Of a DNA stretch of 64,000 nucleotides, positions 30,101 through 64,000 are shown one piece after another (positions within the stretch are counted from its first letter, which is position 1; each line of letters begins with the position of its first letter). The stretch spans positions 53,942,001 through 54,006,000 of the forward strand of contig OZ076409.1 in assembly GCA_964187785.1 (NCBI GenBank), written 5' to 3'. The translations under genes and the position numbers were made by a program. The notes beneath the pieces were generated by a model that had not been told where the DNA came from, searched no databases, and was given only the letters and a program-made list of their open reading frames with translations. The DNA is from Amphiscolops sp. MND2022 (taxonomy: Eukaryota).

Positions 30101-33100
30101 ATTGGTGTTTTGTGAACAAAAATTGCCTCAAATTGACCCCGAAAATGACAAAAACTCCAAAACGTTCTGATTTTCAACGTTGTTATGCAAATTTGTCAAC
30201 TCCGCGGGTTAGAATGTTGGAAACGTTCAACAAGGAAAACAGTCGACGTCAAGTAGGCTTTTGTGGAAAGATGGATGCAATTAGTCAGAGAGAAAAATGC
30301 AGTTTTTTCATTGAAAAATGCCTCGAAAAGACACCAAAAATGAAAGTTCCAAAGTTTTCCTGATTTTGTTGGTTTTCATATAATTTAGTTCAATTTTCGA
30401 AATATTTCATTGTTATATTGACAATTTGAGGTTACAATATTTGAGATTAAAATAAATTATTCAACTAGGCTCGCGCACGCTTTCAACAGAGAAATTTGCA
30501 GTTTTTTGGGAGAAAATCACCTAAAACATGCAAAAAAACTCTGAATTCTCAACCTTCTGACTTCTTAAACCGTTGTCTGGATAAGTTTTGAGCTACTTCT
30601 TACTGTGGTTCATAACACTCAGCAGCGACAAAACCTGTTATCCAGTAAGGGTTTTTGAAGGTATAGCAGCATTTTTAAAACTAAGTTTGACTTCAAAAAC
30701 ATTCAAAAGTCAAAAATACCCATAATTTTTTATCCATCTACCAACAATTTAATGGAATAGAACTTCTATTGACCTGAACGTTGCAACAATGGTGTCTTTG
30801 AAATGAAATTTGACAAACAAGGTGGGATCAAACGTTTCGAATTTGACAACAGAAGTTGGGCACTTTCCGGTCGTTTCCTTAACTAGAAATTCCATACGCC
30901 CAGGATTAAATCGTGAAGCTAACGGTAGTGTTTCCAAGAGATATCGGACAAATTATTTCGCAATATTTTTAGTCGGCGCTTTTCTAGTGAAAAAAGCCCG
31001 ACTATTACAGTGGTTAGTTTTTTTTCGTCAGACTTTTCACTCATCGCGTATGTACCACTTTATGTGAAAGATTCACTTTTACCAAAAGTACTCAGTAGTT
31101 GATTTTGAACGCATCCAAAGGCCTCTTCCTTGAAATTCAAAATCCAAAAGGTTCCCCCCTTCCAATTTTTTGGCGCTATGAGACTTTCCCCACCCCTTTT
31201 TCGGCTTTGTGAGATTTTTTTTCGAAGTTTTTAAAGTCTTCAAAGGGTCCCCTTTCTATTTTTTTGGTGTTTTGCACCTGAATGGATGTTGAAAAAGCCT
31301 AAAAAGTCCCCTTTTCTACAATTTTAAAAACTTTGCGCTTTTTGAGTTTTGAAAATGGCGCCGACTTTAGACGTTCCCGTCTTGTTTAAAACTGTATTCG
31401 AAAACGTAATATTCCTTTTCTCACATTGTTTGCGAAAAATTCATTGTTCAATGAGCTCCAGAGCTCCAAACGAAATCACCAGCTGTCATGCCAGCATGAT
31501 GGAAATATAATCTACTAAATATTTGTAATGTAAATATTATGTCTTATGTACTTAGATATGGGCAATATGATGTCATATAATAAGAGCCATGGTTGTGAGC
31601 AACCCTACGTTACTTGTACTTTAACCCCTATCCCCCCTGAGTTTGAGCTATATATATTTACTTAATACTGAGCGCTCTAATTCCGGTGTCCGCACAAATG
31701 ATCTGGCCAATAGCTTTTAATGTGCTATCTTATTCAATATTGGTTTGTCACGATAAGGGAGAGAAGTTTTCCGGTCAGACTGGACCGAGAGATGTAGAAA
31801 TAATGGAGTCTGTAACTTCTACTAGCTCCCTCGCCTCAGGACTTGTAGTCGTGACGAATTTCAGAAAAGTTCATCACTAATCCATCAGCGGACTTAGTGA
31901 TCCTACAACTTGATCTATTAATGAAATTACAGTGCTATATTATCAAGGTTCATCGCAATCACATCGCCAAGATTGCGGGTGAACAAAAATTGGGACTTCT
32001 ATTTGATTTCATTCAGTGATCCATCAGCGGATCTCACGGGACTTTAAAAATACATGAAAAACATCCTATACTCATCGTCGTTTTGTGATTATTAACCTTC
32101 AATGTGCTTCTCATTTCTTAAAAGAGCATAACACATCTATATTTCATCGTCTTGACTAGTAACTACAAGGAATGAGAAAGTACATCCTTAATTCATCCTA
32201 AAAAAGAGTGAAGTGCTGGATATCTGTTTTATTAGATTAACTCATCACTAGTTCATCGTAAATTCATCGCTAGTTCGACTTGCGTTAGAATTAGCCGAAT
32301 TTTCAGTTGAGTTCATCCTAAACTCATCGTTGGAATTTGATTCATTAGATTTTGCTGTTTTATTGAATGTATTCATCCTAAAGTCATCGTATATTTGTCT
32401 TTTTTGCAGAATTAGTTGTTTCACCTGTTTTATCGACTGAATTCATCCTGAATTCATCGTCAATTTCACTAGTGCTGGGAATTAGTTATTTTTCGAGGAG
32501 AGTTCATCCTTTTACCATCGTCGATTTAAATTGTGCTGGAAATCATTCATTTTGAAGACGAGTTCATCCTTTTATCATCGTCAGTTTATATCGTGTTGAT
32601 TTTCGAGCGAAAAGACCACCATTCATCGCATTTCCATCTTTAGGTTTGAAGTATTGATTTTAGTGCTGGAATTAGTAGGAAAACATCGTTTTCCCATCCT
32701 GTGATACAGTTTACTCTGGTTTGACTTGAAATTAGTACATTATTGAATGATTTGAGTTGCTATAGAAACCATGATACTGCGTGCAGGCAATTGCGACATT
32801 GTAAAGTGATGATTAGTCATAATTAGCGTATGTAGATGTACCATGTGGTTTGGCCAACTTGCGGCAGTTCACAACACCGGTCACGTGACTTACCAATTAG
32901 CACCAACTGGCAAAAGCCAATAAGAGTCGGCTGGTAAGAGATTTAGCGTCTTACCAGCCTGAAAAGACACGTGAACTGCTGTAGTTTGGACCGCCATTAG
33001 GGATTACTCAGACCGAAATTACGATTAGCTACTGTCCAGTTGGACGAATTACAACAGATTTGAACTAGAAAACACATCTCTTATTCATCGTAAATAACGC

Positions 33101-36100
33101 TACCTTCACGACTCTGAGTAATTTCTTGATAAATATCCAGCCGATGAAATTTGGATGAACTCTACTTAATCCTCGCTAACTATTTCCCGTTCTTTACTAG
33201 TATCCTTGCCTTACTGTAAAACTCATCGCATTTACATCTCAAGTTCAGAAATAGTGAATTTGAGTTCGAATAACAGCATAAAATAGAAAATACATCGAAA
33301 AATCATCCAGAATCCAGTCTTCACTCATAATTCCTTTTCTCCCACCTCTATGAACCCAGATCTAGGCACTGAACTCAGAAGCGGAAGAATTATTAGTTCC
33401 TCATTAGAAACACCTGTTCCAACGGATCCAGACATGGCTCAGTCCTCTGCCAATGACTCTGATAGTAACGAGACTTCTGATATCTCTTCTCAGTTGTCTG
33501 AAATAAAAGAGAGTTATGAGAGAAAAATAAACGAACTACAGAATGAGTTTAGTCAACTGAAGGACTTAATGATGGCTGTCATAAGTAAGACAGACACCGG
33601 AAACCGACAGTCAACCTCGAAAGGTCCTTCAAAGCCGACCCACACAGTAGGGCTCGACATGGTGACAGGAGCTACAGAAACCCGCTCCAACCGCCCAACA
33701 ACCAGCTTCACCAACTTCAGAAATTACCAAGAAGACGATTCAGACGAAGGAGAATCAACCCCCAGAAGCAATGAGGAACGACTACTCAATGCAATCGAGA
33801 CGATCCCCCAACGGATCAAAAACACAACCACCAACACGAAGCTTCTGCAGACACACGTGCCAAATTTCAGAGGCCAAAAAGACAAATTCGTCGAATTTGA
33901 GCACCTTCTCCTCAACCACCTTAGCCCGCTTGCCAACAAAATCACCGAGGAGAACAAACTACACTTCTTTCAAAGCCTTTTGAGAGATGACGCAATAGAA
34001 TACTGGCAATCCATCCAGATAACGCCAATGACAACACTAAAAGATGTACTCGACCTCTTCAGAAAAGAATTTGCAAAAGAGGATCTAAAGGAAGTGGCCC
34101 GTTACAAATGGGATCAAGCACGCTACGATCCCACAACAGAAACATTCGGCGATTTCCTCAAAAATCTCAAGAAGACTGCCAAACAAGCCTTCGGCAATGA
34201 GGCCGACAGAATAATCAAAATGCTCCTGTTTGGAAAACTGCCAGTCGAGATTCAACAAGAGCTCACCATGGCAAACAAAGAAGAGAGCTCCCCAGAGGAA
34301 ATCAAAACCTACCTAATGCGAAAATACCAGTACCAGCAGTACGTCGCGCCACCTACGGCAATCCAACCATTTAACGCGGTCACCTCCTCAGCACCACCTA
34401 CGATTACAACGACGAAGCCCACAACAACAACAACGACCGCACAACCGACAGAACGAAAACGATTTGAGGGACAATGTTTCTACTGCGGAAAGACAGGACA
34501 CCGCAAAACGGAATGTCGCGCCCGACAACGAGACGAAGCGAACGGCATAAAGAAGGAGGATGCAATCCCAATGAAGAAAGCAGCCGATCCAGATAAGCCG
34601 AAATACAATCCAAAATTGGTCTGCCAGATTTGCGGTTACACAGGCCACTCAGCAAGGGATTGCAGACGACGTGTCCCTAAAGAAAGCAGTTCTGCATATG
34701 GAAAGATTCCATACGCAACGAATTCACAAGATGACAACAGAACTAGAAGACAAGATTTAAAACGACAACAAAAGCCGATGAACCCTATGCAAGCAGTTGC
34801 CGAAGAAGAAGACCAAGAAAGCTACTCTGATGAAGACATAAATCAGGGTTTTTGATTCCGCCACGATTTCCACCCGCTAGAAACACAACGCGCGACCAAC
34901 GACTTTCGACTCAACCGACTACACACGACCGTCCAATGAAGAAATGGCAGCCTTCACTGGACAAACGACCAAAAGCTGACGACGTCTATCAGCGAAGACT
35001 TTCCAACGATGAAAAAGCGATGAGAAATGCACGTCAACTCAACGGCAGCCGCTTTTCTCCACTCGCTGAAATCAAAGATGATCAAACGATGAACTGGCAA
35101 CCAAACACCATGAGGCAGGTGGAAGATGCCAAAGAGATGGAAACCCACCATCTAGACGACGACTCGACTTCACACTCAACAATCGACAAACGGCTTAGTA
35201 TTAAAAAACATGCAAAACAGAGTAGTATTAACGTTTCAAAAGCTAAAAAACATGCAATTAAAACAGAAATTCACGTTCTCAGTCCCACTTTACATTTAAA
35301 CAAGAAAGATAAAATGCTGTACGTCCCTCTTCAGTTTGACAAATACGAAAACAGCGCACTTTTAGACACAGGCGCAATACAAAGTGCAATGTCTGAAGCC
35401 GAATTGCGAAAAATAACAACGGCTCATCCAGAAGCCATCCTTCAAGAATTCCCCCCTCCGAATTTCAAAATTCAAATAGCAAACGGGAACTTAGTCCCAG
35501 TGCGTAAGCAAGTCTTACTTAGATTTTACGTTGCTGGAAAAGTATTCGAAGAAACGTTCCTAATCCTTCCAACAATGGGAACAATTTTAATTGGAATGTC
35601 CTTTTTTGAAAAGTACTCAGTCAACTTAGACATCAAAAACCACCTTGTCCACTTCCCTAATCACATGATGTCTATGCAAGTTAGACAGCAAAAGAACAAC
35701 AGATTCAAAACTGGTTTAATTGATTTGTGTTCCAGTACCAGAACAGTGATCCCTCCTCTCCATCAAGTGATGATACAGGTCCACAGTGACGCGGACATCT
35801 CACTTACAACCGGTACAGTTGAGGGCTCACCTGGATTCATGCGAAAGACGTGTTTGCTTGTTTCTCCAGCTTTGGTTGACCTAGACGAGGGCAAGACGAC
35901 AATCCAGGTCACCAACCCAAACACCCACACGTACACACTTGAAGCTAACACCACTCTGGCACACTTTCGCATCCCGACACCACACCAGGCGGCAAACATC
36001 ACGCCCATGCCAGTGGAACACTTGAATTTGATCACCAAGTACCCAGATGAAGCCGAAGCAGTGATCAACCAACTGTTCGTGAACCCTGAAATGAAGTCAA

Positions 36101-39100
36101 CCAAGTGGTACCCAACTCCCGAGACGTGCAGTGAGCCAGACAAACTCAACGCAATTGAGCGACGGATTTATGATGAGATTCTGGCACTGCGAGAGCTCGA
36201 GAAGCTTGACCCGTCCCAATCCGATGAACAACGGATGAACTTCCTGAAGAACTTCAACTGGGACGACTCGCTTCTTACTCCGTCTCAACGGTTACAGGTA
36301 GAGGAGTTGCTGGTAAAGTACAACTCCATTTTTGCTAGACATCGTTTTGATATTGGCATGAACACTGATTTTAAAGTTGAGCTAACACCACAACATGAAG
36401 AACCTGTTTGTTCACAAAGTCTCCCTACTCCGACAAATTTGAAGGACGATTTGCTCGTGGAGTTAGCTTTAATGCAAGAGTACGGGATTATAACTACTTT
36501 GCCTCACAGCAAATACTCTTCCCCAATATTTGCTCAGCGTAAACCTAATGGTAAATTGAGGATTTTAGTTGACTTGAGAAGAATAAACCACCTGATCAAA
36601 AATGATTACGGTGAGCACAATCATCCCGTAACAACAATTGCTGACGCTGCCCAACACATGGCCGGGAAAAAGTACTTCTGCAAACTTGATTGTTCCCAGG
36701 CCTACCATTGCATTCCAATGGCCGATGAGCAATCTGTCCAACTGTTATCGTTTAATTTTGGATCTAGAACTTTTGCATTTTTACGTCTAGCACAAGGTCT
36801 TAATCGTTCTTTGTCAGCATTTACAGGAGTAATCCGTGAGTATTTGGACCCCTTGGTCAAAGCGGACCGCTGTGCCCAATATGTTGACGATATTGGAATT
36901 GCAGCACACTCACCCGAAGAATTGATTACCAACCTTGAACTTGTTTTTCAACAATTGCACAAAGCTGGTCTTAAACTTAGCATGAGTAAATGTGAATTTG
37001 GACAAAAACAAATTGAGTACTTGGGAAAAACCATTTCTAGCACTGGTATTGCTCCCATTGAAAAACGCGTAACAGACTATTTAACCAAGTTGAAACCCCC
37101 CAATTCAGTGAAAGCGTTGCAACGTTATCTTGGTTTTGTAAACTTTTACAGGTCTTACATTCCCCGTCTAGCTGATAAAACTTGTTGTTTACAGGAACTC
37201 ATCAAGAAAGACGTCCCTTTCAAGTTGAACCAACAACATAAAGATGCTATTTTTGAAATTAATGAAAGTTTGTTAAAAGCAACAAAAGTGTCTCTGAAAT
37301 TGCCACTACCAGATAAACAACTGGTAATCATGTGTGACGCCAGCGAACACGCTGCAGGCTATGTGTTGTTAATCGAGGATTATGCAGACCCGTCAGTCAA
37401 ACATACATACGCCCCTGTTGCATTTGGCTCTAAGAAATTTCAGGGCGGCCAGATGTCTCTAACAATGTATGCCAAAGAGTTTTTAGCTATGCACTTTGCC
37501 TTCGATGAATTTGGCCACATTTTGTGGGGTGCGAAAAAACCCATCATTGTTATGACTGACAATAAGGCCTTGACTAGATTTTTCCAGGCGAAACATATCC
37601 CGCCTTCACTTTGGAATTTTTGCGATCAAACCCTTCAGTTCAATTTTCTATTAGCACATGTTCCAGGAGTTGAAAATCCCGCAGCGGATTACTTATCTCG
37701 GCTTGAGATTAGACCTGAAGATCGTGTACATTTAAAATTGACTGATACTATTCCAATTCACAGGATCGAGATCGACATCGCCTCCCGTACACCAAAACAG
37801 GAGGAGGACGAGCCTGATTACTTCCCCGCGAGCGAACCACTCAGATGCAAACGCCAGAAGGATGTCAAAGAGATGAAATTGGCAACTGGCACTGACGTGG
37901 CTCATGACGATGGGAAAGGGATGAAGTTCACCAACTGTGAGAGAACAGCGGCCTCAGATGACTTCGCGACTGACAACCATCTGACGTACCGCCTCACAGA
38001 CGTGGACGAGCCGATTCAACTCTCGCAATTCATCCGTAAAGTATCATTATCACACCCGGTAATGAGTCAGGTTAGCCCCGCCGAGGGGATCGATCTAATT
38101 CAGGTCCAGAAAAATAACTGGGTGATCCAAAAAATGATTAGATTTTTAGAAGGTACTGAAATTTTGCAACACCCAGTTAATATGCAAGACCAGTTTTTTC
38201 AAAAGTTGTACAAAAATCGAAAACGCCTACAAGTTGTAAACGGTGTCTTGTACAGACAGTTTTTTGATCACACGGGACTAGAGTCTCACAAGCAGTTAGT
38301 CGTTCCTGAAGACTGTATTTTGAAAATAATTAGGACTCTACATAACAGCCCGGTACAAGGACACCCTGGTTTAAAGAAAATGTTGTATGAACTTCGTAAA
38401 AGATATTACTCTCCTAACTTAGCCTGTAAAGTTCAAAAGGTCCTTGACGGATGCGAAAACTGCATGAAGTCTAAAAGTGTAAAAGAAACACAACTTCGTC
38501 CACCGTTACAAAAAATCTACGACCCGTGCGACGGACCAGAAGACCTGTTGGAAATAGACATCGTTGGTCCACTCCCGGCATCGAACGGTTTTACACACAT
38601 TCTGACGGCTGTTGACGTTTTTTCTCGCTACCTGTTCGCCGTTCCGCTGAAGAGACCTGATACACATTCCGTAGTCAGAGGATTACTGTCGATCTTCACA
38701 AAACATGCGTATGTGCCCAAACACATTCTGACGGACAAGGGCACGGCGTTTACGGCTGAACTTCTGTCTGAAATCGCGAAAGCGGCTGACATTCACATCT
38801 CCCATGCCACGATAAAGCACGCGCAGACAATAGGCATGGTGGAGAGAACGCACGCGAAATTGAAAAAGATCCTTAAAATTAGTATAAACGCAGACAGACC
38901 ACAATGGGACCGCTATGTCGACATAGCAATCATGGCCCATAACACGACGTATCATGATTCACTGAAATGTTCACCAACTGAAATTTTCCACGGAAGAACA
39001 CCATACAACTCACTAGATCTGCAATTCAGAAACGCAAACAAACCGGCTGAAACAAAGTGCAAGGACGTGAACGAAATTCTAGACAAAATGAATTTTATCT

Positions 39101-42100
39101 TCAGAGACAATCTAGATAACATCATTTCCGCCTATCACAAGTACAAAACGTACTATGATAGAAAAGCACGAGCTCAGCCACTGAAGGTGAATGAATTTGT
39201 GTTCCTACTAGATCCTAAGTACGACTCTCAGAGAAGCAAAGAAGAGTTTAAAACTTTCCATTGGAAAGGACCGTACAAGGTGATTAAAGTGCTATCCGAT
39301 AGCAACTATATCATCCGCAAAGTAGGCACACACCAAACTCAGTGCGTACATCGCATGCGACTGAGATTGTTCAAACCGGAATTTCCGATTGATGACATCA
39401 ACGTGTCCAAACATCTTTACCCGGACACTGAAAGGGTTGAAGATACGGACATATTCGATTCGAATATTCCGACAACCGACGAAGTAGATCAGAACGAGAA
39501 CGACAATATAGATCAAGACTTAGTCGAAGATGAACCTTCAGCAGAAATAGTTCCACCAGTACAAGAGCGACACAGTCCACAAGTATTTCCACCAGAAATA
39601 ACCACGAGAATAGAATATCAACAAGTAGAAACTGACCACAACAACTTTAGACCACCTATAGTTAGATTTGGAACGCGAGAAGAAATTATTCTACCGCCTC
39701 CCCGCGATGAGAGTAGGATAAGAGTACCTCTGAGAGACGAACAACACGAAAATCAGTCACAACAGCCAAACACGCAAAACGAAGATGAAGAAAGGATGAG
39801 TTCTAGACCGTCTAGATCAAATCAAAGTAGGTACAGGTTACGTGAGAACCCTACACCGAAAACGTATCCAGACTTCCTCATTCATGAGATTACTTCAGCT
39901 AGAAACGCACTGAGAAAGACCAACAAAATAGACGTACCGATTTAGCCAAGAAAAGTCTCACTTTAAATCTGAGATGTGTTACGGATGAACAAATCACAGA
40001 AACGAACGAATTACATGCAATTTTAACTTAAAAAACACATGAAGATGTAAAATGGATGAAAAGTTACTAAAAATCACATGAAAAACGCATACAAACAAAA
40101 CGCGATGTAAAACGGATGGAAAACGATCAAAAAACCAGGAAAAACAACACACAAAAATTTGAGATGAAAAAAGGATGAAACCACATGAAAATTTAGCTCA
40201 GACACACGAGAGATGAAAAAGTGATGAACTCAGTCAAGATTTCGACTAATCTACATGCAACATTTACTAGCGATGCATTTGAGATGGTAAATACCATCAG
40301 AATGCAAACGCACCCACGTTCATGCTATCATAAGACTCTAGCTCGGCTAGAGGATGAAATAGCGATGAACTTGAAACAATTATTCATAAAATACATGAAA
40401 TCAATCAACAAGATGAATTTGTGATGGACACTACCATCAAATCGTGACCGAATTTATCGTTAACCGGACACAATACTCTAGCTTCGCTGGAGGATGTCAA
40501 AACGATGAATTTAGTCTAAATGGAAATTCGAAAATATTAAATGACTTACCAACACCTCCTTGTGATGGGAAACACCATCAACATAACATCACAATAAATC
40601 AGCTAATTCTCAAACAACATGTAACTCCACGAAACGATAAAAAACAACCGACCTTATTCCGAATCATGCAACGAAATTATGCGACACAAAAATGAAATGA
40701 TCAATACATGTAAAGTTCAAAGACCTGCCAAATCAATGACGTCACGAAAGCAATTAACAATTCCAAACTACATGCAATACAAATGAGCAACGCACGGAAA
40801 TATACATGTACCGTTCAAAAATGAATGAGATAATATATGCAATTCACACCAAAACCATCCGAACCTAGACGAATAAAAATGAAACAAACAAACGAAAATA
40901 CATGAAGTCTACTAACTTACATGCAAAATATAAGAACTGACGAAACACCTACAAAACTAATAAAGGAGTGAGCACCACCCCAGTAAACATCAGCTCATAA
41001 CATACAAAACACCCCTATCGAAAAGCTAAAAACATTCCTTCGTGCTGGCTGGCATTTCTCTGAAAAGAGTGCTGGTTAGTTGAGGCGGGGAGCTCACAAC
41101 CATATTCGGATGAAGCTTGCTGCGTTGGTTATCCAGCGGCTAGTGGATTCTCAGTTAGTTTTGTAGGGGCTTTGTGACGACAAAGCCCTGTCCAAATGAA
41201 CGAAAATAAAATTAAAAAACATGAAACTAACACCGAACATATAACGACATGTCAATAATGGGGCAACCCATTTAAAAGAACACATCATGTAACAATCCAT
41301 ACATGCAAATACAAGAAACAGATAGTCTAAAACTGGACACATGCATAACCGTAGTTGTCAATCATATTAATTGATCGGACTGACCGTCAAATGGACAAAC
41401 CCATTTCGACGAATAATGGCAAACAACCAACCGAAAAAATGACATATAGACTATATATAGCCCGAAACTACGAGATTCCATTCATCTGAAAGGAGCGGAG
41501 CAGCTCCACTCACCCAGCTCTGGACTGAAGCCACTAGTACCTCGCACGCCTACAGGCTATCAGTACCACTGCTGAGTGAACCTATTTTCGACTGCCACGC
41601 AAGCGGCGGTCACCAGAATTCGAACTAAAAATACATGCTATGACGTTCCGAAGATGACAAATTAGAAAAATGACGACGATGATCAAAACACATGTACCAT
41701 AAAATTCATGCAAATTCAAAAACACGACAAACGGTTATAACCGTATAACGCTAAAATACATGAAGAAAATACTTCGAAACACCGCAATATTAATAAAAAT
41801 TTCCCCCAGACATGCAAAATGCAACCCCCGATTACGTTATAGCCAAATAACATCGAAAACACGCAAAAATTCATACATTTCAAAACCACGATGAAAAGAA
41901 GATGAACTATACAGCAAAATGAGCAAAAACTTGCCAAGTCAAACTTGCGATGCAAAAACGATGAATTACACCAAAAAACTAGCAAAAATGCAAAAATTCA
42001 AAGGCAAGATGAAAAAACGATGAACTATGTAGAAAAATCACATGTAACAAACATGCAACGAATCGCATATAACAAACGATGTAAAAAAGATGAAAAATCA

Positions 42101-45100
42101 CTTTTCGCGACGTCGCTCGGCCGACCGAGGAAAACGTGATGAAAATACGATGAGAAATCAAAATCGAAGCATTACTGAAATATCTTCACATACACGCGAT
42201 GTCCTAAAGGATGAACAACGTTAGAAAAGAACACATAAGCGATGCGAAAAAGACGACAAATGAAAATAGAGACGCTGAGTACTGCGACCTACAAAAGAAC
42301 CCCATTACCGTAAACCTAACCGACCGCTACCTGCACAATTAATCACTAGTATCTCAAGAGAAAAAATATTCGGGCGCCAAATAATTCTTCTGTAAATACA
42401 ACCTGCCACCGATTTTTCCGACGCAGCAGTTACCCCCCCACCACTTGCAGTGGCACATTGACTTGGTCACCCACTAAAACTATACTATAATGTAATATAA
42501 AGCACTACTTCAAGTAAACGAAAAAATGAAATAAAATAATCCACAATCAAAAGTTCAACAGACTAGAATTCTCAAATCTCCGGACTCGGAGCACGTTCTC
42601 CTTCTTCAGTAAATCCTAGCAGTTCGTACAGGGATTGGCGATAATCCTCGGCAGCCACCACACCGACGTCGTCCCATGGCATGTCGTCCGTTACATCAGA
42701 CAGCGTCGTAAATCGTCCAAATGATTCAGCGATTTCCTCCAAGAAAGGTCCACTGACACTCTCGTATCTCCGTATACGATGAGCCTTGAGAAAACTCAGA
42801 ACACTCGAACACACGCTGGTCGTGATGTCACTCCGTAAATGGCCCACACTACCACAAGGTGTTCTCAGCGGCAAGAGTGGACTCTCGTTCAAGCACATTA
42901 GAAACCTGAACAACCGCTGCGCAGATACACCATCACACGCTCGGAGAATTTCGACAGCAGAACTCGCACTATCTGAAGTCACTCCAGTAGCAATCCGCCG
43001 ATAGTTATCCAAGAATACAGGGAAACTTCTATCCATCCGCCTTTTCTCCACAGCGGTGACTCGTCTCAGCTCCATTAGCAACTCAGTAAACTGTGCAACT
43101 TCCGCTGACAAAACATCAGGATCACAAGACAATAGCAGGGCCGGACAGCAAACGCTCAGATGGAAAGTTACCTCTTCTTTCACTCCTCGTACACTCAAGA
43201 ACTCCTCCACGACCATCAACAGAAAGTCTTTCACTAGAATGACATTCCCTTCAAACACGTCAGGGCGCTCGAAACAGTCCAGATGGGCAGCAAACTCCTC
43301 ACGAAGAGAATTTAACTTGGCATCCGAAACCACTAGCCCATTGAGGTCAATGCACAAACAAGCTCGTACATCCAACACGGCAGGAAGATCTGACTCTTCA
43401 ACGACATAGGACAAAATAGTGTGCACGAAGCATGAACTTTCATATGACCAATGTGCAGTCCTCAGTTCGCAGCCACTGAAGCTCCAACGAAAGGTAGTAA
43501 CGACTAAAATCAAACAAAATTTCATTGAGAAGTGTATATAATAGCCCCCCCCCGCTACAAACACCGACAATCAAACCAAACTTCATAGATAAGTGTATAT
43601 AACAGCCCCCCCTACAAAATAGATTACTAAACATTAAACTGTACATACGAGCACGAAACACCAGCGACAAAGCATGAAGACGAAGAGACACACTAGGGTC
43701 ACCACACAGCACAATGTCCAAAGTGTCAGGCACACCAGAATTACCAGGAACCCTCAGTAGCACAACGATGTCCAACCAATTCGTATGGAGCTCTGTCAGT
43801 ACGTCGGGAACATCCCACAGAGTGACCTCTCCCTCCAGTACAGCCTAGAAAAACATCGAGTTGGATAATAACAATTTACCAAGATCCACCACTCGCCCAA
43901 CTTAAAAGCACACGATCTCCAACAAATAAACATGCAATTAGAAACACTGATATAGAACACATATTCACCTGCAATAGTTTCGGACAAGATAGTAGAACGG
44001 CATCATGCACAAAGTCCTTCAGCCTTGTCTGCAAATGATTAAGCAGTGTATGCACATCAACACCGCCCATAACGCGCACACTCGCGTCAACAAGCACTTT
44101 ATTCAGGTCGCTGATCCGCAGAGGAATGAGTGAAACAGCTCCTAGTCCAGAACCCCTCAACAGCGCACGCTCTAGCCTGGGTAACAAACTGCAGTTGACA
44201 CCAATAGGAGAGACCTGCCCCACAGCACAACAGAGCAAGTTGACCATCCAGGAGACCACACGCTGTTCCCATTCTTGCGAGTAATTGAAGGATAGAACCA
44301 CATAACTTGCGAGTCCCTCCACAGTACACACGCTCACGGTGCCCACCACCCTGTCCGCCACAATAGACACACCAAAACTAGTGAACTCGGTCTCAGTCCA
44401 CAAACTCAGTACTCGCCGCATGACATAGGGCCACAACCCCAAAAGGACCACACTCTAAACATAAAAATCGGAATCATTTAAAAGACATTTAGCTCATTTT
44501 CAGGTACACCCCCAACCCAGAATAACAAAAAAATAAAAGAAAAAACGCCCTAATTGTTGATTACTAGTGCACGCAAAACATGAAACATATCATATGACAT
44601 ACAACACATGAAAATATAATAACCAGTACATCAGCCTCTCGACACGCCGAACCAAACAAAACAGCATGCTGGGAATTCGAAGACACCATCAGGTCCCAAA
44701 GATGACGCACACTCGAGAAATCACAGTCGCGATATATAGCATCCACGACCAGGCACACGAACAGCTTCACACTTTCAACCTGTGCACTGTCGCTCGATGC
44801 GCATATGTCGCCCCACACCGATCTGCCAGTCGCCTCAATCTGTAGAGCCTCGATCACGGTCACATTGGGACATGACTCAACTACCGGCACTGCTTCGCCA
44901 GCTAACGTCGTCGTACATACATCGCACTCAGCTTCGGACATGAGCGTCCCATCCCGTTTCCGCAGTGCGAGCCCACGTCGCAATCGCACCAAGCAATCCA
45001 GACGATGATGCCTCATTCCGCGGCAGTGCTCAAGAAATGTCGTTATGCCGCGGCTACCGATCTTTACATCCTGCTTGCAAAGTAGGCACCGCGCGTACGA

Positions 45101-48100
45101 ATCACGTGTCAGGTGATCTTTTGGAAAACCTAACGCCAATCCACAATAAGCATGGTCGAACCACGCTGACTTGAGAACTTTCCTTCCTGAAATAAAAAGA
45201 AAACAAATCTACAAAAATCATCCTTTCAAAACTGAAAAATGAAAATACCACGAAAAACTTCCAAAAAGTCACCCGGAGTGATGAAAAAATGATGTAAAAT
45301 AATATTTTCATCGGGAAATATAAGCGAAAAACGAAGAGAAAACGAAAAGATGAAAACGAGATGTGTTTGCAGACCACCAGAATGGAAATTGAAACCTTTA
45401 AAGACGAAAACTCGAACGATGAAAAAGAGATGTATAGAACGACTTTAAACCAAATTTGAGATATTCTAGAGCGAAAAACAACTTAACGATGAAAAAGAGA
45501 TGTAAACTGAAAAGAAAACACTGAAAGATAGTGAAAACCGAAAACGAGAAATTTTAAAGATGTAAAAGAGATGGAAAGTGGCTAAAATAGTTAGAATGCA
45601 AGACAAAAGAGAAAAACGCCATGTTTGAAAACTTTTTACGATGAGAAAATGATGAAAAAACATAACTTGCAAAATTGAACAGCGGAAAAAACTAAAACGA
45701 TGGAAAATAGATGAAAAAGACGAAAAATCTGAATTGCTAGCAAAAATGAAAAAAAAGGGAAAATGAATGAATGCAGGTACTGATCAGATACTTCACATGT
45801 TTTAAAGCTGTTTAGGTAACCTGGGAGATGGGAAGCAATTGGCTCATCGTCTGAGTCTAGTAGGCTAGGCCCCATCGGAGAAGTTACTGCAAGCTCAAGC
45901 TCCAGATGAAGTGGAACTGTCTCCGAATCAAGTGCGGCAGACGAGGGATCAGCAATCGTGATGCCTGCTGGAGCGTCAGAAAGAGTCCCTGTGCCGATGG
46001 CAGGATCCTCAGGAATGATCGCCTCAGGGTGAACAGAAGCAAAAGTAACAGTCTGATTGGCATCAGGGGTGAGCAGTTCAGTATCATCGACGACTGGAGG
46101 AGAAGCAGACAGGGAAGTCTCCACCTGGGGTTCATAACATGTGGAACCATCAGCAGTCTCAATAACGGCTTGGACCTCCTTGTCCACAGTATCCACACAG
46201 GCATTCAAAGAAGCGTCACTGCAGCAGACGACAGCATTGACACCCGACTCAATTGTAAGTCGGGGACGGCGTGGACTGACAACTGAGAAAGTTCGCTGCA
46301 AAACCGGCGACAACACCGAAACCGGCGTCCACCTGACTGGAGAACTGGTATCGGCGGCAGACAGATCGTTGAGGAACGACGAGACGTTCAGTTGTGGTGG
46401 CCCTCCGGAAGTGTTGACAGTTACGCCCTCGTCTGGGTAGTCACTGGTCCCAATCCCGATCGAATACACGATGGGACGTGGGACAGGCGCATGAATCGGA
46501 GTAGGGCCTACAAAAAATAACACTCAAACAGAAATGGGCCTGAAAAGAAGAAACAGTTACTGGACGACGACGATTAGAGAAGAAAGAGCGCGTACGCCGC
46601 GCGAAGAAAGAAGACCGGAGAAGAATTCATCCAAAACTCATCTTCAGAAATGGGATTCACAGCGAGATCAGTCATGAAGAGCTGTGAATGTTCATGACAC
46701 ATCCTAAATTCATCTTAAAAATGAATTACATGGGTAATCGACCGCAAAGGACACTACATGCAGATGAGATGTTTACATCGGAATCACATCGGAGTGTTCG
46801 GACGATAGCTTAGAGGAGTGAAAAGGAAATTGACAAATTCACTGTACTGCTGGATGCTGTCCCGCAGCATGTCCCGCATGTGGCGGTCATACCACCCGAA
46901 GGTGATGCTGCCCAGGGAGGCATACCAAGGGTAGTGGTCTGAAACACCGAACGAAAAGGGGTAAGCTACTGGACGAAGTAAGGATGAGATATGAGGGATT
47001 CGAAGACTGAACTGAAGAATGGAAGGATAGTACTTACACTGCGGAAGATACGGGACGTTAGGGGCCTGTTCAATTTGCTGCTCGGGTTGATACTGAGGTG
47101 CGTGAGATGCTGCAGGGATCGGAGCCTCTTGAGGCGGAACTGTCTGCAATGTAGTCAGTTCGGAAATTATGCCGACAGAGTGAACGGAGTCCGCTAAAAC
47201 CAAGACACGCCTTCAATTCCTAATTGTTCCCCGGCCCGTTTGTGAAGAAGAGAAAAATAGTGCACTTACTTTCTGTGGCCTCGGTCTCCGGTAACGAATA
47301 GACGGAATTGATATCCGACATCGCGAAGAATTGCAAAAACAATCTGAAAAGAATGGAAGACGGTGAAAGAAGGAAAGAAATCGAAGAAATCCAGGAGCAG
47401 AGAATTTGATCAGTAATTAAATGGCCTGATCAACCATGATTACAGAAGAACAAATTCAATAGAAGATTTCAAAGAGCGCGACGCAGCTTGAATGCCATGT
47501 TAATCAAACACTTGAATTCAGAAGATGAAAAATCGATGAAAATTCTCCGATTTCAAATACTGACATCACTTTTCTTCCCAGTACAACCAACTCAAGCTTT
47601 CTCTGAAAATGGATCGTCCTCTCCTAGGACTTGACAAAAAACTTCAAGTATTTGATTTGTTGACAGCTGCCAGTCTCAGATCAATACCGACGAAGTTGAG
47701 CGGAAACGCGCGAAGGAAATCGTGGCGATTTTCAAACCGACTTGAATGGAGGATGATTTATGGATGAGAATGCGGCTGACAACCGGTTGTAATTTCCTTC
47801 AGTTATAAATTCAGTCTCAACCAATCAGATCGAGCAACAGTTGCTATGGCGACGAATTCATCTCTTTCTCATCCACTCAAAAGTCGAGCAGCGGAAGTAA
47901 CTTTTGACAGTTGCTATGGCGACGATTCATCTTCTTTCCATCGCGAGTAAACAAAGCAAACGGCGCCAGCCATTCCGCTAAACAGCATCGATGTCTCGCT
48001 GAGCAAACAATTCATCGTTCATTCATCCCGACTCGCTGCCAATTTGTCAATGAAGCCAATCGAATTGTTTATTCAGCGTAGGCGTTTTGGAGGGAAACTT

Positions 48101-51100
48101 TTCTCCGAGAAATCAGCTTCTACCGAAAATAACCAGCCGAAACTCCCGTCAAAAGCATGACAACCAATAAAATGCAGATCAGCGGACATTCGATGGACCA
48201 AGAATTAGAGTTGCCGCGTCGAAAATTTTAACCGAAATCACCCAGGATGATGCCAGAAAAGACGGTTACCGAAGGTCCTCTTCTCAGAGAAGCTCTCACA
48301 GGACAGAACAAACGAAGGACATACCAGTTCAGAACTAACGAAGGCCATTTTTCCCCAACTAAACGAAGGACCAGTCGAAGCCAACGCCGAGACAACCATC
48401 CTCTGCACATTTGGCCCCTGCACTCTCAGTCCAAATCCCGCCCCGGGGAGTGTCATGCCAGCATGATGGAAATATAATCTACTAAATATTTGTAATGTAA
48501 ATATTATGTCTTATGTACTTAGATATGGGCAATATGATGTCATATAATAAGAGCCATGGTTGTGAGCAACCCTACGTTACTTGTACTTTAATCCCTATCC
48601 CCCCTGAGTTTGAGCTATATATATTTACTTAATACTGAGCGCTCTAATTCCGGTGTCCGCACAAATGATCTGGCCAATAGCTTTTAATGTGCTATCTTAT
48701 TCAATATTGGTTTGTCACGATAAGGGAGAGAAGTTTTCCGGTCAGACTGGACCGAGAGATGTAGAAATAATGGAGTCTGTAACTTCTACTAGCTCCCTCG
48801 CCTCAGGACTTGTAGTCGTGACGAATTTCAGAAAAGTTCATCACTAATCCATCAGCGGACTTAGTGATCCTACAACTTGATCTAATAATGAAATTACAGT
48901 GCTATATTATCAAGGTTCATCGCAATCACATCGCCAAGATTGCGGGTGAACAAAAATTGGGACTTCTATTTGATTTCATTCAGTGATCCATCAGCGGATC
49001 TCACGGGACTTTAAAAATACATGAAAAACATCCTATACTCATCGTCGTTTTGTGATTATTAACCTTCAATGTGCTTCTCATTTCTTAAAAGAGCATAACA
49101 CATCTATATTTCATCGTCCTGACTAGTAACTACAAGGAATGAGAAAGTACATCCTTAATTCATCCTAAAAAAGAGTGAAGTGCTGGATATCTGTTTTATT
49201 AGATTAACTCATCACTAGATCATCGTAAATTCATCGCTAGTTCGACTTGCGTTAGAATTAGCCGAATTTTCAGTTGAGTTCATCCTAAACTCATCGTTGG
49301 AATTTGATTCATTAGATTTTGCTGTTTTATTGAATGTATTCATCCTAAAGTCATCGTATATTTGTCTTTATTGCAGAATTAGTTGTTTCACCTGTTTTAT
49401 CGACTGAATTCATCCTGAATTCATCGTCAATTTCACTAGTGCTAGGAATTAGTTATTTTTCGAGGAGAGTTCATCCTTTTACCATCGTCGATTTAAATTG
49501 TGCTGGAAATCATTCATTTTGAAGACGAGTTCATCCTTTTATCATCGTCAGTTTATATCGTGTTGATTTTCGAGCGAAAAGACCACCATTCATCGCATTT
49601 CCATCTTTAGGTTTGAAGTATTGATTTTAGTGCTGGAATTAGTAGGAAAACATCGTTTTCCCATCCTGTGATACAGTTTACTCTGGTTTGACTTGAAATT
49701 AGTACATTATTGAATGATTTGAGTTGCTATAGAAACCATGATACTGCGTGCAGGCAATTGCGACATTGTAAAGTGATGATTAGTCATAATTAGCGTATGT
49801 AGATGTACCATGTGGTTTGGCCAACTTGCGGCAGTTCACAACACCGGTCACGTGACTTACCAATTAGCACCAACTGGCAAAAGCCAATAAGAGTCGGCTG
49901 GTAAGAGATTTAGCGTCTTACCAGCCTGAAAAGACACGTGAACTGCTGTAGTTTGGACCGCCATTAGGGATTACTCAGACCGAAATTACGATTAGCTACT
50001 GTCCAGTTGGACGAATTACAACAGATTTGAACTAGAAAACACATCTCTTATTCATCGTAAATAACGCTACCTTCACGACTCTGAGTAATTTCTTAATAAA
50101 TATCCAGCCGATGAAATTTGGATGAACTCTACTTAATCCTCGCTAACTATTTCCCGTTCTTTACTAGTATCCTTGCCTTACTGTAAAACTCATCGCATTT
50201 ACATCTCAAGTTCAGAAATAGTGAATTTGAGTTCGAATAACAGCATAAAATAGAAAATACATCGAAAAATCATCCAGAATCCAGTCTTCACTCATAATTC
50301 CTTTTCTCCCACCTCTATGAACCCAGATCTAGGCACTGAACTCAGAAGCGGAAGAATTATTAGTTCCTCATTAGAAACACCTGTTCCAACGGATCCAGAC
50401 ATGGCTCAGTCCTCTGCCAATGACTCTGATAGTAACGAGACTTCTGATATCTCTTCTCAGTTGTCTGAAATAAAAGAGAGTTATGAGAGAAAAATAAACG
50501 AACTACAGAATGAGTTTAGTCAACTGAAGGACTTAATGATGGCTGTCATAAGTAAGACAGACACCGGAAACCGACAGTCAACCTCGAAAGGTCCTTCAAA
50601 GCCGACCCACACAGTAGGGCTCGACACCAGCTAAACATTACGTCCTCCAAAAAATCGTTATGCAGTTTCCCAAATAGTCAGAAACCCTCCGAATGACCAA
50701 AAATCAAAATGATTTAGACGTTGTGGTGCAAACTTGTAAATTTTTTGAGCTATTTCGTAAATTAGAATGGTGTAAGCATTCAACAACGTCTGAACTCGGT
50801 ATCCAGTAGGTTTTTAGAAGAGATAGTTTATTTTGTGAACAAATTTACGAACTGACCCCAACGATGTCGAGAATAACAAATTTTCCCACTTTTTGACACT
50901 TCTTGTGACGTTTCGTGGAAATTATTAAATTCTTTGTGTATTACGTACTGGTATCCACATAGTTCAAGAACGAAACAATTAGGCACCTAGCGTGTTCATA
51001 AATTAGGCGTTTCCTCTAGAAATGGGCTGAGATATATCGAATTTGTCTCTTCTTTGAACGTCTATGGGTTTTCAAAGTGCATTTGCTGTTCATGAGTCTC

Positions 51101-55599: not shown

Positions 55600-58500
55600 A
55601 TTAATTGTTTTTCAAATCCGAAGTACTAGAAGGAAAGGAAAGGAAAGGAAAGGAAAGTTTATTTGGCTGCATACTCGAAAAGATACAATTTCATCTCATG
55701 TTATTGAAGAAATTCTAAATTTACATCCAGCCAGGAGGGGAGCCAAGATGTCATCGTTGATTTTCTTGGCAAGCTTCCGAAGCTGTTGTTCTTCGCGGAC
55801 ATCTAATTCATGGATACTTCTCAAAAAGTTACGGAACGTTTCAAAGGGACGTCCCTTGCCATTTCCACATCATCTTCTTCAAATCTCTGTAAAAAGATTT
55901 CGTTTTTTGCACTGCTATGTAACAACGTTTGTACATTTTCTTACACGCTACAGACCATAACAATCTTCAACAAACGGGAATGTCTATAGTCGGAGCTACA
56001 CTTACGGCTCAAAAAGGGCATATTTTTGTTTTCTTGTGTAATTCCTGTTGGGCAAAAAGTAGTTTCCCTGTCTCAGGCGTAATTTTGGAGGTTGTTGTTC
56101 ACACTGAGAAAATGATAAAAGCATGAAACTAGAACCTTTGCAATTTTAGGAAAGTTGAGCGATCTCGGTTTGTTAAATTATTGCACATATTTTCACCAGA
56201 AGTGTCAAACATTGGAAAAATTTTCGACAACCTTGGGGTCAATTTGAGAAACTTTTTTTAAACATGAATCTACAGATATCTTTTCAAATATAAGCGTAGT
56301 GGACACCGAGTTTAGCTGTTGTTGAGTATTTACACCATTTTAACCCGAGAAGTAGCTCGAAACATTTTCCTTTGAAAGGTAAACCCCATATCTAGTGATT
56401 TTGCTTGGAGATTTTTGAAACATAAATACTGGAAAAATGAGGTCGAAATTTACGTTTTCATGCAAAGGTTTTGAAAATTTAGCAATAAATTTGTCTGATA
56501 ACTTTTCGAAATACAACCGGTAGCTACAAGTTTCAATCTGAACCTTTGATATTTCTGATTGAAGAAAATGTTTGGAAAGGGTCCAAAATTGGGACTATGT
56601 TGTCTGAAAAAAAGAAAGTTCGGAAAATTTGACACCTTTGTTTTAAACTTTATCTCATTTTCCCCCCAATTGCATTTTGAATACATTATTGTATAAACGA
56701 TCAGGTCATTGGAAGTTCTATTCTTCGAACATTTTCGTGGGTTGAACAAAAACTGAGATTAGTTTGCCAAACGAGGTGATTTTTGTTGTTTCAGAGGTTT
56801 TAGGGTGTTTTCAAGGCCAATTAAAATGCAGTTATCGTTTTCAAATTGCCTACTGGAAATACCCGGATTAGTAATTGTTGAGTTTTCAAAACCATTTTCA
56901 AACCCGAAGTACTAGAAGATGTCAGATTGTTGATTTTCATGGCATGCTTCCAAAGCTGGTTTTTCGCGGATATCTAATTCATTGATACTTCTCAAGAAGG
57001 TACGAATCGTTTCAAACGGACGTTCTTTGCCATTTCCACATCATCTTTTTCAAATCTCTGTAATAAAATTTCGTTTTTTGCACTGCTGTGTAACAACGTT
57101 TGTACATTTTCTTACACGCTGCAGCCCTTACCAATCGTCAACAAACGGGAATGTCTATAGTCGGTGCTACACTTAAGGCTCAAAAAGAGCAAAGTTTTGT
57201 TTTCTTTTGTAATTCCGGTTGGGCAAAAAGTGGTTTCCTAGTCTCAGGCGTACTTTTTGAAGTAACTTTTGGCACTGAGAAAATGGTTAAAGCATGAAAC
57301 TAGGTCCTTTGCAATTTTAGGAAAGTTGAGGGATCTCGGTTTGTTAAATTATTGCACATAGTTTCACCAGAAGTGTCAAACATTGGAAAAAGTTTCGACA
57401 ACCTTGGGGTCAATTTGAGAAACTTTTTTTAAACATGAATCTACAGATATCTCTTCAAATATAAGCGTAGTGGACACCGAGTTTAGCTGTTGTTGAGTAT
57501 TTACACCATTTTAACCCGAGAAGTAGCTCGAAACATTTTCCTTTGAAAGGTAAACCCCATATCTAGTGATTTTGTTTGTAGATTTTTGAAACATAAATAC
57601 TGGAAAAATGAAGTCGAAATTTACGTTTCCAAGCAAAGTTTTCAAAAGTTTTGCATATAAATTTGTCTGATAACTTTTCGAAACACAACCGGTTGCTACA
57701 AGATTCAATCTTGAGCCTACGATATTTCTGATTGAAGAAAATTTTTGGAAAGGGTCCAAAATTGGACAATGTTGTCTGAAATAGAGAAAGTTTGGAAATT
57801 TTGACACCTTTGTTGTAAATTTTATCTCATTTCCCCCCCAATTGCGTTTTGAATACATTAGTGTTTAAACGCTCAGGTCATTAGAAGTTTTTTTCTTCGA
57901 ACATTTTCATGGGTTTAAAAAAATTGAGATTATTTTGCCAAACGATTTTGGGGTGTTTTTGATGCCACTTCCAACAACAAAATGCAGTTATTGTGTCAAA
58001 ATTGCCTACTGGAGATACCCGGATTAGTAATTGTTGAGTTTTTAAAATGATTTTCAAATCCGAAGTACTAGAAGATGTCAGATTGTTGATTTTCATGGCA
58101 TGCTTCCGAAGCTGTTGTTCTTCGCGCACATCTTATTCAATGATACTTCTCAAAAGGTTACGAACCGTTTCAAACGGACGTCCCTGCCGTTTCCACATCA
58201 TCTGCTTCAGATCTCTGTAAAAAGATTTCGTTTTTTGCAATGCTGTGTAACAACGTTTGTACATTTTCTTACACGCTGCAGACCATACCAATCGTCAACA
58301 AACGGGAATGTCTATAGTCGGTGCTTCACTTAAGGCTCAAAACCTAAAAAGAGCAAAGTTTTGTTTTCTTTTGTATTTCCGGTTGGGCAAAAAGTGGTTT
58401 CCTAGTCTCAGGCGTACTTTTTGAGGTAACTTTTGGCACTGAGAAAATGGTTAAAGCATGAAACTAGGTCCTTTGCAATTTTAGGAAAGTTGAGCGATCT

Positions 58501-60665: not shown

Positions 60666-60707
60666 AGGAAAATCAAAAATTGAATAAAGTTATGCCGGCT
60701 GTATGTC

Positions 60708-61045
60708 TAGAACAAATTGAAAACAAAAAATGAAAAATTTGAAGCAGTCTCTCAGTGTAGAAAAATGTAAAAGGAGGGGACCTTTTGGACTTTTTTGACA
60801 TTCATTTGTTGCAACAAAATTGAAACGGAGGACCCTTTAGTCTTGTCCGGTTCTGTATGTTACGTTAGATGTGGATTAAATGAAAAAAATTAACTTAGAT
60901 GCGTTTCCGCTGGTCGGTCCAGTAGTTTAGTAGTTTCTGTAAAAAGAGTTCAATACGCATAACTTTTCCTATCTGACGGAAAAAAAAAGAAAACATTCGC
61001 ACTGTAACCGTCGCGCTCTTTTTGTTAAAATGCGCCGTCTAAAAA
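60708..61045 (-). mobile_element. Helentron-type repeat copy (partial); near-duplicate at 63648-63985
   Basis: Shares ggggacc, ctttagtc..gtccgg, ggtccagtagtttagt and the actgtaa..gtcg..cgccg.ctaaaa end with 4274-4756. Confidence 0.6.
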
Positions 61046-61362
61046 CGACTCAGGAGCAAAGTTACGATTCGGGATTTCTCTAGTGTGAACCTCAAAATTA
61101 TGTCTTGACACAATCTGACAAGCCAGCGGTTTGTATAAAGCGAGATGAATCCTCAATGCGGGACAGATATAGTACTTTCTCTTCGTGAAGTCTAAAAGAT
61201 TTGTAGGGTTTTTGAAAAGAGTGAAATACTCCGTCTTAGTGAAGAATCGGTTTAGCTGGTGGGTTTGCATAGTATCCACTAGTCATCTAAGACTGGTCAC
61301 AGCCATGGAATTGGTAGAGAAGCTACAGAGAATTTAACTTAACAATGAAGTTCGAGCACTGT

Positions 61363-61364
<2 letters not shown>

Positions 61365-61424
<60 letters not shown>
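61365..61424. repeat. (CAG)20 microsatellite
   Basis: 20 uninterrupted CAG units. Confidence 0.97.
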
Positions 61425-61425
<1 letters not shown>

Positions 61426-62314
61426 TGAGATAATCGAGGGAAGCTCACCGAAATATAATATTAAACAAGGGTTCTAAATGGCGTTGCAAGCACGTCTATT
61501 GGGTTTTCTCGAGCCGCTTTTATGTAGTTTTACTCTCAGTTGACACTTTACAGTTGATTCATGACAGAATGTAATAATTCGAGTTCCAGAAACAAGTTTT
61601 TGACGATGCTTAACATTTTTTAAAATGCAATCACTTCCTAAGAATTTCACGTCATCACACATGTACGGTGTACGGTAACTCTGACATTACACCAGAGCAC
61701 AAAACTCGTCAAAAACTTTCCATTGTTTCAATGATCACTATCGCTGATGATTTTATAAAAATCTTGATATCGTCGTTAAACCTGTCGTTATTCAAGATTT
61801 CAAGGATTTTGAAAACCTTTGAGATATTGGCAGTTTTTGTTTTTGACCTTGACTTCTGGTTTTAGGGTTTCTGTTCACACTTTAGCCTGGGATCGATAAA
61901 ATTTTGTTCTTATAACGTTCGTTTCTTCCGGGGGACAAATTTCCTAAAACTTGATTCGTTGTGAATCTGGAAAGCATGCGTTTTTTGGCAGAATAATTCA
62001 TTCGAAACATTTTCTCTCCTTGCTGAGAAAGGCTACTGCAAACAATTGTCTTTTGAACATTCTTTACGAACTGGAAGACTTTGCTATCTCAAAAATATTA
62101 GCACCAGAAGACCGAAAGATTGTTATGATTGAAATTAATCCTGTGTATTTCGTTTTGCTCACGAAAACCAGGCGGTTGCTTTGCAAACTGGAACATCAAT
62201 ACTACAAGACGCCCGCTGAGCAACGAGATATTTTCTGCCCCAAACTGTTCTACAACTACATAAATTTGAGGGCCAAGAATACCCAATGCTTATGAAAATG
62301 CAAAAAAATTCGCA

Positions 62315-63985: not shown

Positions 63986-64000
63986 ACTCAGGAGCAAAGT

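Follow-up and report, generated by a model that had tools for sequence, protein, structure and literature searches.

A 64,000-nucleotide stretch of the genome of Amphiscolops sp. MND2022 (assembly GCA_964187785.1, contig OZ076409.1, forward-strand positions 53,942,001 to 54,006,000; hereafter the window, in whose numbering positions are given) contains a complete, young Ty3/Gypsy long terminal repeat (LTR) retrotransposon that carries an eight-exon gene antisense to gag and pol, in the interval separating pol from the 3' LTR. The last four exons of this gene very probably descend from a hAT-type DNA transposase, its product appears to have kept a BED-type zinc finger and lost the catalytic residues, and the element is rich in a phased dyad, CATC-N7-CATC, that is a candidate target for the finger. 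We propose, with a probability of roughly 0.4, that the retrotransposon has domesticated the transposase as its own transcription or anti-silencing factor, with cognate sites spread through LTRs, spacer and introns, co-evolution of finger and site, and exchange of old alleles among young element backbones. The core of this proposal, a domesticated transposase acting as a positive, sequence-specific self-regulator that binds the element's own dyads, we put at even odds.

The carrier element occupies positions 31484-50626. Its LTRs (31484-33659 and 48451-50626) are 2176 nt each and differ at 7 positions (99.7% identity), a 5-nt target-site duplication (TSD) flanks the pair, and a primer-binding site (PBS) lies behind the 5' LTR. 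Two zinc knuckles are encoded in gag, and pol is ordered protease, reverse transcriptase, RNase H and integrase (PR-RT-RH-IN). These features place the carrier among Ty3/Gypsy elements and bear out the LTR retrotransposon recognised in a first-pass annotation, which had been made from the nucleotide sequence of the window. In the interval from pol to the 3' LTR, the open reading frame (ORF) list of the window holds no plus-strand frame above 140 amino acids and no env-sized gene. The gag frame is already open within the 5' LTR (33287-33680), with a first ATG at 33350, about 100 codons upstream of the LTR end, and a further gag ATG is created at the junction of the LTR end and the PBS. The parts of the element and of the antisense gene are:

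31484..33659, plus strand: 5' LTR, TG...CA, with ~60-nt repeats carrying CATC-N7-CATC dyads (LTR pairing; 5-nt TSD outside)
33287..34855, plus strand: gag frame with two zinc knuckles (ORF and domain search)
34834..39945, plus strand: pol, PR-RT-RH-IN (domain search)
39950..42570, no strand: non-coding spacer with 15 CATC-N7-CATC dyads, 14 on the minus strand (motif count)
42572..43503, minus strand: exon 8, putative helical insertion domain with a C-terminal helix, position of the catalytic Glu unconserved
43649..43844, minus strand: exon 7, region of the Arg-Trp (RW) helix, register uncertain
43969..44454, minus strand: exon 6, putative degenerate RNase H-like core, no conserved Asp, no CxxH
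44624..45186, minus strand: exon 5, BED-type C2H2 finger, then a helical region matching the transposase N-terminal part
45187..45820, minus strand: intron 4, 7 dyads (motif count)
45821..46507, minus strand: exon 4, Pro/Ser/acidic, variable, dN/dS 0.16-0.41, with no transposase homology seen, though no test was aimed at it
46508..46842, minus strand: intron 3, 3 dyads oriented opposite to those of intron 4 (motif count)
46843..46938, minus strand: exon 3, short aromatic-rich segment, pN 0.00-0.07 (pairwise substitution counts)
47038..47193, minus strand: exon 2, Pro/Gln-rich (alignment of copies)
47270..47321, minus strand: exon 1, start codon (alignment of copies)
47322..48450, no strand: upstream region and likely promoter side of the antisense gene, 5 dyads, with a short purine tract adjoining the 3' LTR
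48451..50626, plus strand: 3' LTR (LTR pairing)

The antisense gene runs on the minus strand from an ATG at 47321 to a stop codon ending at 42572. Its eight exons comprise 3168 nt (1055 amino acids) without an internal stop and are separated by seven GT-AG introns of 76, 99, 335, 634, 169, 124 and 145 nt (introns 1 to 7). Acceptor 2 and donor 5 were set from an alignment of genomic copies; an alternative acceptor at 46969 was dropped, as it loses the phase in three of five copies. In five divergent copies (L051-L055, with exon 8 at 59-78% amino acid identity) all 35 aligned introns are GT-AG, and exons 6-8 align to the window without a single gap, while introns 5-7 show 7-80 gap columns. The frame is open in four of the five, the fifth (L051) lacking a start codon and being frameshifted in exon 4. 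From this conservation of introns and frame we infer that the seven introns are spliced. The ratio of nonsynonymous to synonymous substitution rates (dN/dS) is 0.04-0.20 in exons 5-8, for the pairs in which dS is estimable (dS is saturated in most exon 5-8 pairs), and 0.16-0.41 in the low-complexity exon 4. By these measures the gene is under purifying selection, and that it is real and protein-coding is close to certain. The first-pass annotation had joined scattered minus-strand ORFs at 42572..47321 through seven phase-compatible GT-AG introns into a frame of ~1055 amino acids. Both coordinates proved exact, the introns are kept at aligned columns in all five copies, and the comparison with other copies that it had called for found the gene present with dN/dS below 1. 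Within the N-terminal, non-transposase part, exon 3 is the best-conserved segment.

Descent from a transposase was traced through a donor family picked independently of the antisense gene. A motif named in the first-pass annotation had 9 matches in the genome and 0 in the control; three matches were fetched, and one genomic remnant used as a query returned 59 proteins, of which the 43 of at least 650 amino acids were aligned. In these 43 donors the two Asp residues, CxxH and the Glu are invariant and RW is near-invariant; Pfam recognises zf-BED in 6 and Dimer_Tnp_hAT in 1 (E 0.01), and one UniRef name in the set reads Dimer_Tnp_hAT. This combination is that of hAT transposases, with sparse zf-BED and Dimer_Tnp_hAT support, and we refer to the family as hAT-type, leaving the subgroup open. 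The profile of exons 5-8 matched the donors end to end over 627 columns (HH 96.4%, E 1.1e-9), compared with 0.2% for the reversed profile and at most 0.4% for 30 shuffles. Single-exon profiles matched colinearly: those of exons 5 and 8 scored 68% and 92%, and those of exons 6 and 7, at 5% and 0.4%, are not significant alone; global HH alignment exon by exon was not informative for exons 6 and 7. With HMMER, 41 of the 43 donors fell below P 0.01 (best P 2.8e-17), whereas none of the 43 reversed sequences did. Of the 13 accessory rows, 12 fell below 3e-5, the best control reaching 0.024. End-to-end homology of exons 5-8 with a hAT-type transposase family is therefore highly probable, in line with the hAT origin supposed in the first-pass annotation.

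Each lineage profile on its own scored 4-33% against the donors, and the accessory profile compared directly with Ac-like host hATs scored 0.1%, the match appearing only with the closer donor family. Pfam assigned no family to the six exon frames at E up to 1, including no VANC or PMD domain, so the C-terminal dimerisation domain suggested in the first-pass annotation went undetected. A sequence search of the PDB with 6-row exon profiles returned nothing, single-sequence or shallow searches of the protein collection found no longer relatives, and single exons gave no more than leads in the ESM Atlas (0.81 and 0.86).

At the places where the gene has introns 5-7, the donor-type frames of this genome show no interruption (query 7-411 and 411-759), so the introns were presumably gained after capture or brought by an already domesticated host gene. 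Capture of an intron-containing ZBED-type host gene in place of a live transposon would give the introns the other source they need, and is compatible with any function of the protein. No single-copy host version of the gene was found, however, among the best 121-150 of thousands of candidates, and we regard this origin as distinctly unlikely. Most of the donor-type copies in this genome (62 matches in G000; L060-L062) appear internally deleted, with BED and C-terminal parts retained and no full-length frame among the matches listed.

The finger has been kept. In a 61-row alignment of exon 5, zf-BED is the most frequent Pfam family (5 of 61 rows, at E 0.013 or worse) and the top PDB match is ZBED2 (2djr, E 0.13), both weak. 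The zinc ligands C33, C36, H53 and H59 are present in 47, 44, 45 and 45 of the 61 rows, 9-10 of which are gapped, so that each ligand is kept in 44-47 of the 51-52 rows having a residue. The active site has fared differently. A single Gly is the only residue invariant among 19 exon-6 sequences, and no acidic residue, Cys-x-x-His or His is, a result that does not depend on the register; rows L058 and L068, each without an exon and misaligned in the core, were disregarded in the core alignment. The catalytic Glu column is occupied by L/G/M/V/N/A/I/T and is substituted in every row that covers it. With DDE triad and CxxH unconserved, and with no terminal inverted repeats (TIRs) or 8-bp TSD of its own in the window copy, the gene lacks the marks of an active hAT, and its product is in all probability catalytically dead. 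The BED-like finger, the missing CxxH and the lost Glu of the first-pass annotation thus stand. Its reading of FGVSIVAD as a first-Asp strand with the Asp in place does not, the first Asp being likewise unconserved, and its registers for the second-Asp strand and the RW helix were not consistently reproduced, as HH-align and MAFFT disagree.

The gene is widespread in the 1.07-Gb genome. Exon 8 has at least 37 full-length matches at 96-100% (best 121 of 1007 first-look candidates scored) and exon 5 at least 39 at 97-100% (best 150 of 2903). A profile search of 1.84 billion proteins gave 91 matches, nearly all exon-sized frames, one of which (P0054) was rejected as a repetitive false match. Two of the 91 reach only 48% and 34% identity to the best of the matches listed in this genome, which suggests further lineages in other genomes; scans of metagenomes confirmed no locus. 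Distant relatives used as queries exposed two additional deep lineages in this genome, making three in total. Lineage 2 is 27-30% identical to the window in exon 5 and 40-42% in the pol tail, and lineage 3 is ~23-27% identical to lineage 1 in exons 6 and 8 and 64-92% in pol. Introns 5-7 have the same position and phase in all three, which points to a single capture of the transposase gene underlying them. Window exons 1-4 have no match in the lineage 2 protein (L056-L058, L063), whose acidic N-terminal part is apparently unrelated; at its C-terminus this protein has a long tail, basic and Ser-rich, that lineage 1 lacks. At G000:C7:2716039-2720333, exon 8 is repeated four times in tandem at ~1.1-kb spacing with open frames.

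The gene lies tail-to-tail with pol in all 10 loci having enough flank, a count that leaves out nine other accessory loci that are too short. In a young lineage-2 subfamily, 18 of 18 copies at 99% sit between two LTR matches, 17 within direct LTR pairs 12-14 kb apart and one within an inverted pair; the sole other LTR pair at 100% has a separation of 2.7 kb, which cannot accommodate a full element. No TIR and TSD candidates bound the gene in the window copy, in line with the first-pass annotation, which had seen none and had held the gene not to be a recent nested insertion. To judge from these loci it is a fixed feature of the family. Among the matches listed there is no intron-less processed copy as a long open frame (longest frame 489 amino acids).

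The element contains 56 CATC-N7-CATC dyads, where Markov simulation gives a mean of 0.66 and a maximum of 4. Of these, 47 lie in the LTRs, the spacer, introns 3-4 and the upstream region, 8 in gag-pol, and 1 in the part of the gag frame within the LTR, and the density in the LTRs is 17 in 1.8 kb. The 44.9 kb of flank, the span of exons 5-8 and 97 kb around 30 hAT loci have none. Of the 54 close same-strand CATC pairs, 47 have a spacing of exactly 11 nt, roughly one turn of the helix. Arrays of a short, family-specific motif in the non-coding DNA of the element itself are what VANC- and TnpA-type systems display. An extended form of the dyad has 19,088 matches in the genome versus 230 for the reversed control, a figure that mostly reflects copy number. 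The eight dyads within gag-pol coding DNA (35022-39798) include seven on the minus strand. Derivation of the dyads from leftover hAT ends was considered and rejected, because those of intron 4 and the spacer share an orientation.

The dyad also varies with the finger between lineages. Dyads number 25-30 in each of six long lineage-1 loci and 7 in 6.4 kb of lineage 3. In lineage 2 there are 0-1 direct dyads per 8.5 kb and, in their place, 6-7 copies of a palindrome, GACTG-N7-CAGTC (counted with up to one mismatch; simulations gave a mean of 0.3-0.5 and a maximum of 4). Lineage-1 and lineage-3 loci lack this palindrome. Counted by eye, 25 of 33 finger residues are common to lineages 1 and 3, and 13 of 33 are shared with lineage 2. 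Lineages 1 and 3 are only 23-27% identical in exons 6 and 8 and yet share this finger and the dyad.

We therefore put forward the following scheme as a proposal. An ancestral Gypsy element would have acquired a hAT-type transposase gene in antisense orientation, in the interval from pol to the 3' LTR. Genomic RNA retains introns that lie on the antisense strand, so that an intron-containing gene survives reverse transcription, and such a gene needs an antisense promoter of its own. The protein would be a nuclear, sequence-specific DNA binder whose BED finger reads the phased dyads across the LTRs, spacer and introns, and its acidic, Pro-rich N-terminal third may recruit host chromatin or transcription factors. 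Copies of the family would in this way be activated or shielded from silencing in trans, as with VANC and TnpA. Parts of the scheme have parallels. The BED domain of Hermes recognises subterminal motifs of 4 nt in a cooperative manner that depends on exact phasing (PMC10368747), the targets of VANC are family-specific repeats (PMC5735166), and TnpA is described as having arisen from a transposase, transposases becoming regulators or host factors through catalytic loss (10.64898/2026.08.24.746577).

Several observations weigh against this interpretation. As to descent, the donors are in register with Ac-like hATs but their profile link is weak (11.5%, E 0.0026), and the core alignment is unstable. 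Fold searches with single-exon models returned no hAT structure, and in particular not the Hermes fold that the first-pass annotation had expected from a Foldseek-type check; the exon-6 model (helix, three strands, helix) has low confidence (pLDDT 40) and a best Z of 3.5, and the all-helical exon-8 model (pLDDT 68) matched only generic helical bundles (best Z 5.4). As to the target, the orientation of the dyads flips between introns 3 and 4, which no model explains; the lineage-2 palindrome was discovered post hoc in the loci used for its count; and the covariation of finger and dyad rests on one evolutionary contrast. Host transcription factors are equally able to yield motif arrays in LTRs, so the binder may be a host protein. 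Finally, one dyad array accompanies lineage-1 alleles that are 40-50% apart in the folded part, which leaves most of the divergence unconnected with a change of motif.

That divergence has a mosaic pattern. For the same pairs of copies with the window, synonymous differences (pS) are 0.04-0.29 in pol tails and 0.53-0.91 in exons 5-8, and L059 is 95% identical in a pol-spacer stretch, whereas its exons 5-8 reach only 50-56% at the protein level. Accordingly, young backbones would carry old alleles of the gene, presumably exchanged by template switching. Four of five copies have introns 2-4 at 80-98% identity. Across introns 1-4 (45187-47269, compared with L052-L055) likeness is 75-98%, far above that of synonymous sites of exons 2 and 4 in most pairs, which suggests either constraint on the introns or patchwork recombination.

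The same pattern bears on the alternative that survives best, which we consider unlikely: a captured dead transposase that acts by protein contacts, for instance by decoying or opposing a restriction or small-RNA factor of the host, the dyads being host transcription-factor sites. Old alleles on young backbones resemble the product of an arms race, such a role would account for the retention of many of them, and L055 and L059, the closest in pol of the lineage-1 copies tested for both, are the most distant in exon 8. An antagonist is less easily reconciled with dN/dS being low throughout, with a pairwise test that gives no positive selection, or with zinc ligands conserved in all lineages and a dyad type that tracks the finger type.

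Rather less probable again is a DNA-binding protein that takes part in the cDNA or integration step, where it would tether or escort the pre-integration complex or bring its ends together as a hAT oligomer does with transposon ends. The density of dyads in both LTRs would suit such a helper, as would selection on the whole transposase scaffold and not on the finger alone. The internal spacer and introns are, however, equally dyad-dense, dyads occur in pol far from the ends, and a protein made from a separate antisense mRNA would seem to have no obvious route into the particle. Slightly behind it stands self-limitation, in which either the protein or double-stranded RNA formed from the antisense transcript would hold the element down and so limit harm to the host. 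Binding of the element's own DNA suits repression as well as activation, and antisense RNA control has been proposed for plant antisense ORFs (PMC7264820). Yet cheater copies would easily lose a trans repressor, and all 18 full-size young lineage-2 elements keep the gene; a role of the RNA alone leaves the low dN/dS unexplained. Functionless hitchhiking or a still self-mobile nested hAT transposon, for which the donor-type remnants in the same genome might speak, is largely refuted by the lack of TIR and TSD, the unconserved catalytic residues, the strong purifying selection, and position and intron phases that are the same in lineages with pol only 40-42% identical.

The proposed domestication has partial counterparts elsewhere. 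Antisense ORFs between pol and the 3' LTR occur in plant Ty3/Gypsy elements (maize Grande gene23, rice RIRE2, Retand TRP28/PF04195) and in fungal Boty (PMC7264820; PMC11963269). Both papers give their origin as not known and hold that their dissimilarity to other transposable elements does not support a nested origin (PMC7264820; PMC11963269). The plant and fungal ORFs share with the present gene their orientation, position, presence in most copies, conservation and frequent proximity to repeat arrays, and a nuclear or DNA-binding role has been proposed for them, as it is here (PMC7264820; PMC11963269). Its position in the 10 loci with enough flank and its presence in the 18 full-size young lineage-2 elements place the present gene among such antisense accessory ORFs (aORF-3R). 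What sets it apart is a traced hAT-type transposase origin, an animal host and seven introns; in the main text of the Retand paper the word 'intron' is absent (PMC11963269).

In VANC of Arabidopsis VANDAL elements, TnpA of En/Spm and the present gene, an element-encoded accessory protein is combined with family-specific motif arrays in the element's own non-coding DNA (PMC5735166), and TnpA and the present gene are both transposase-derived (10.64898/2026.08.24.746577). VANC and TnpA serve plant DNA transposons beside a live transposase, however, whereas the present gene rides in a retrotransposon, an element of another class, and its binding and anti-silencing activities are putative. With hAT transposases (Hermes, Ac, and the uncharacterised P0116 family as the closest) the gene shares the BED finger and colinear helical, core and insertion regions over the 627 columns, but it lacks conserved DDE and CxxH, TIRs and TSD, has an extra N-terminal region of ~330 amino acids and seven introns, and moves only as a passenger. 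The ZBED family consists of host-domesticated transposases that lost catalysis and kept the DNA-binding domain. FAR1 and MUSTANG likewise combine catalytic loss with a DNA-binding domain kept under purifying selection, as here (10.64898/2026.08.24.746577). Unlike in these host genes, the domesticator here would be a selfish element, and the gene is present in hundreds to thousands of copies rather than singly.

Some animal LTR elements have a third ORF, reportedly including C. elegans CERV, and those of bdelloids lie on the sense strand. The ORFs represented by env and by the bdelloid GDSL and DEDDy ORF3s are, as here, captured accessory genes in animal Gypsy-type elements (PMC5408684). The bdelloid ORF3s are expressed from spliced messages and none is transposase-derived, the word 'transposase' being absent from the accessible part of that paper (PMC5408684). 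The accessible text of 10.64898/2026.08.24.746577 does not mention retrotransposons, and the corresponding parts of PMC5408684, PMC13547354 and PMC8721813 contain no precedent. In the literature searched, mostly open-access, no transposase-derived or spliced antisense gene in an LTR element was found, in agreement with the first-pass impression that a spliced, DNA-transposase-derived accessory gene in an animal Gypsy element is undescribed. What is new is the traced cross-class origin and the candidate DNA target, the antisense position itself being known.

The window has further features outside the element. A 1401-amino acid RGS12/14-like gene with PDZ, RGS, RBD and GoLoco domains lies at 14439-18644 in a single frame with no intron within it, and an apparently intact long interspersed nuclear element (LINE) with ORF1 and an endonuclease-RT ORF2 lies at 19664-23450. 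Near-perfect hairpin-type inverted repeats cluster at 28994-29306, and a tandem array of ~1.17-kb units occupies 55750-64000, its short sub-repeats being shared with 4274-4496, 6364-6782 and 30966-31387.

Reviews treat it as unsettled where antisense genes at this position come from and what they do, and find a nested-transposon origin unsupported; the present case supplies one traced origin, together with a candidate DNA target that renders the function testable. It would also be a case of one transposon class domesticating the enzyme of another, and it shows intron-containing genes persisting in a retroelement. If the protein does open or activate its own family, the ~19,000 extended-site matches (a number inflated by copy number) would belong to an animal system of sequence-specific counter-silencing, corresponding within Class I to the VANC and TnpA systems of plants.

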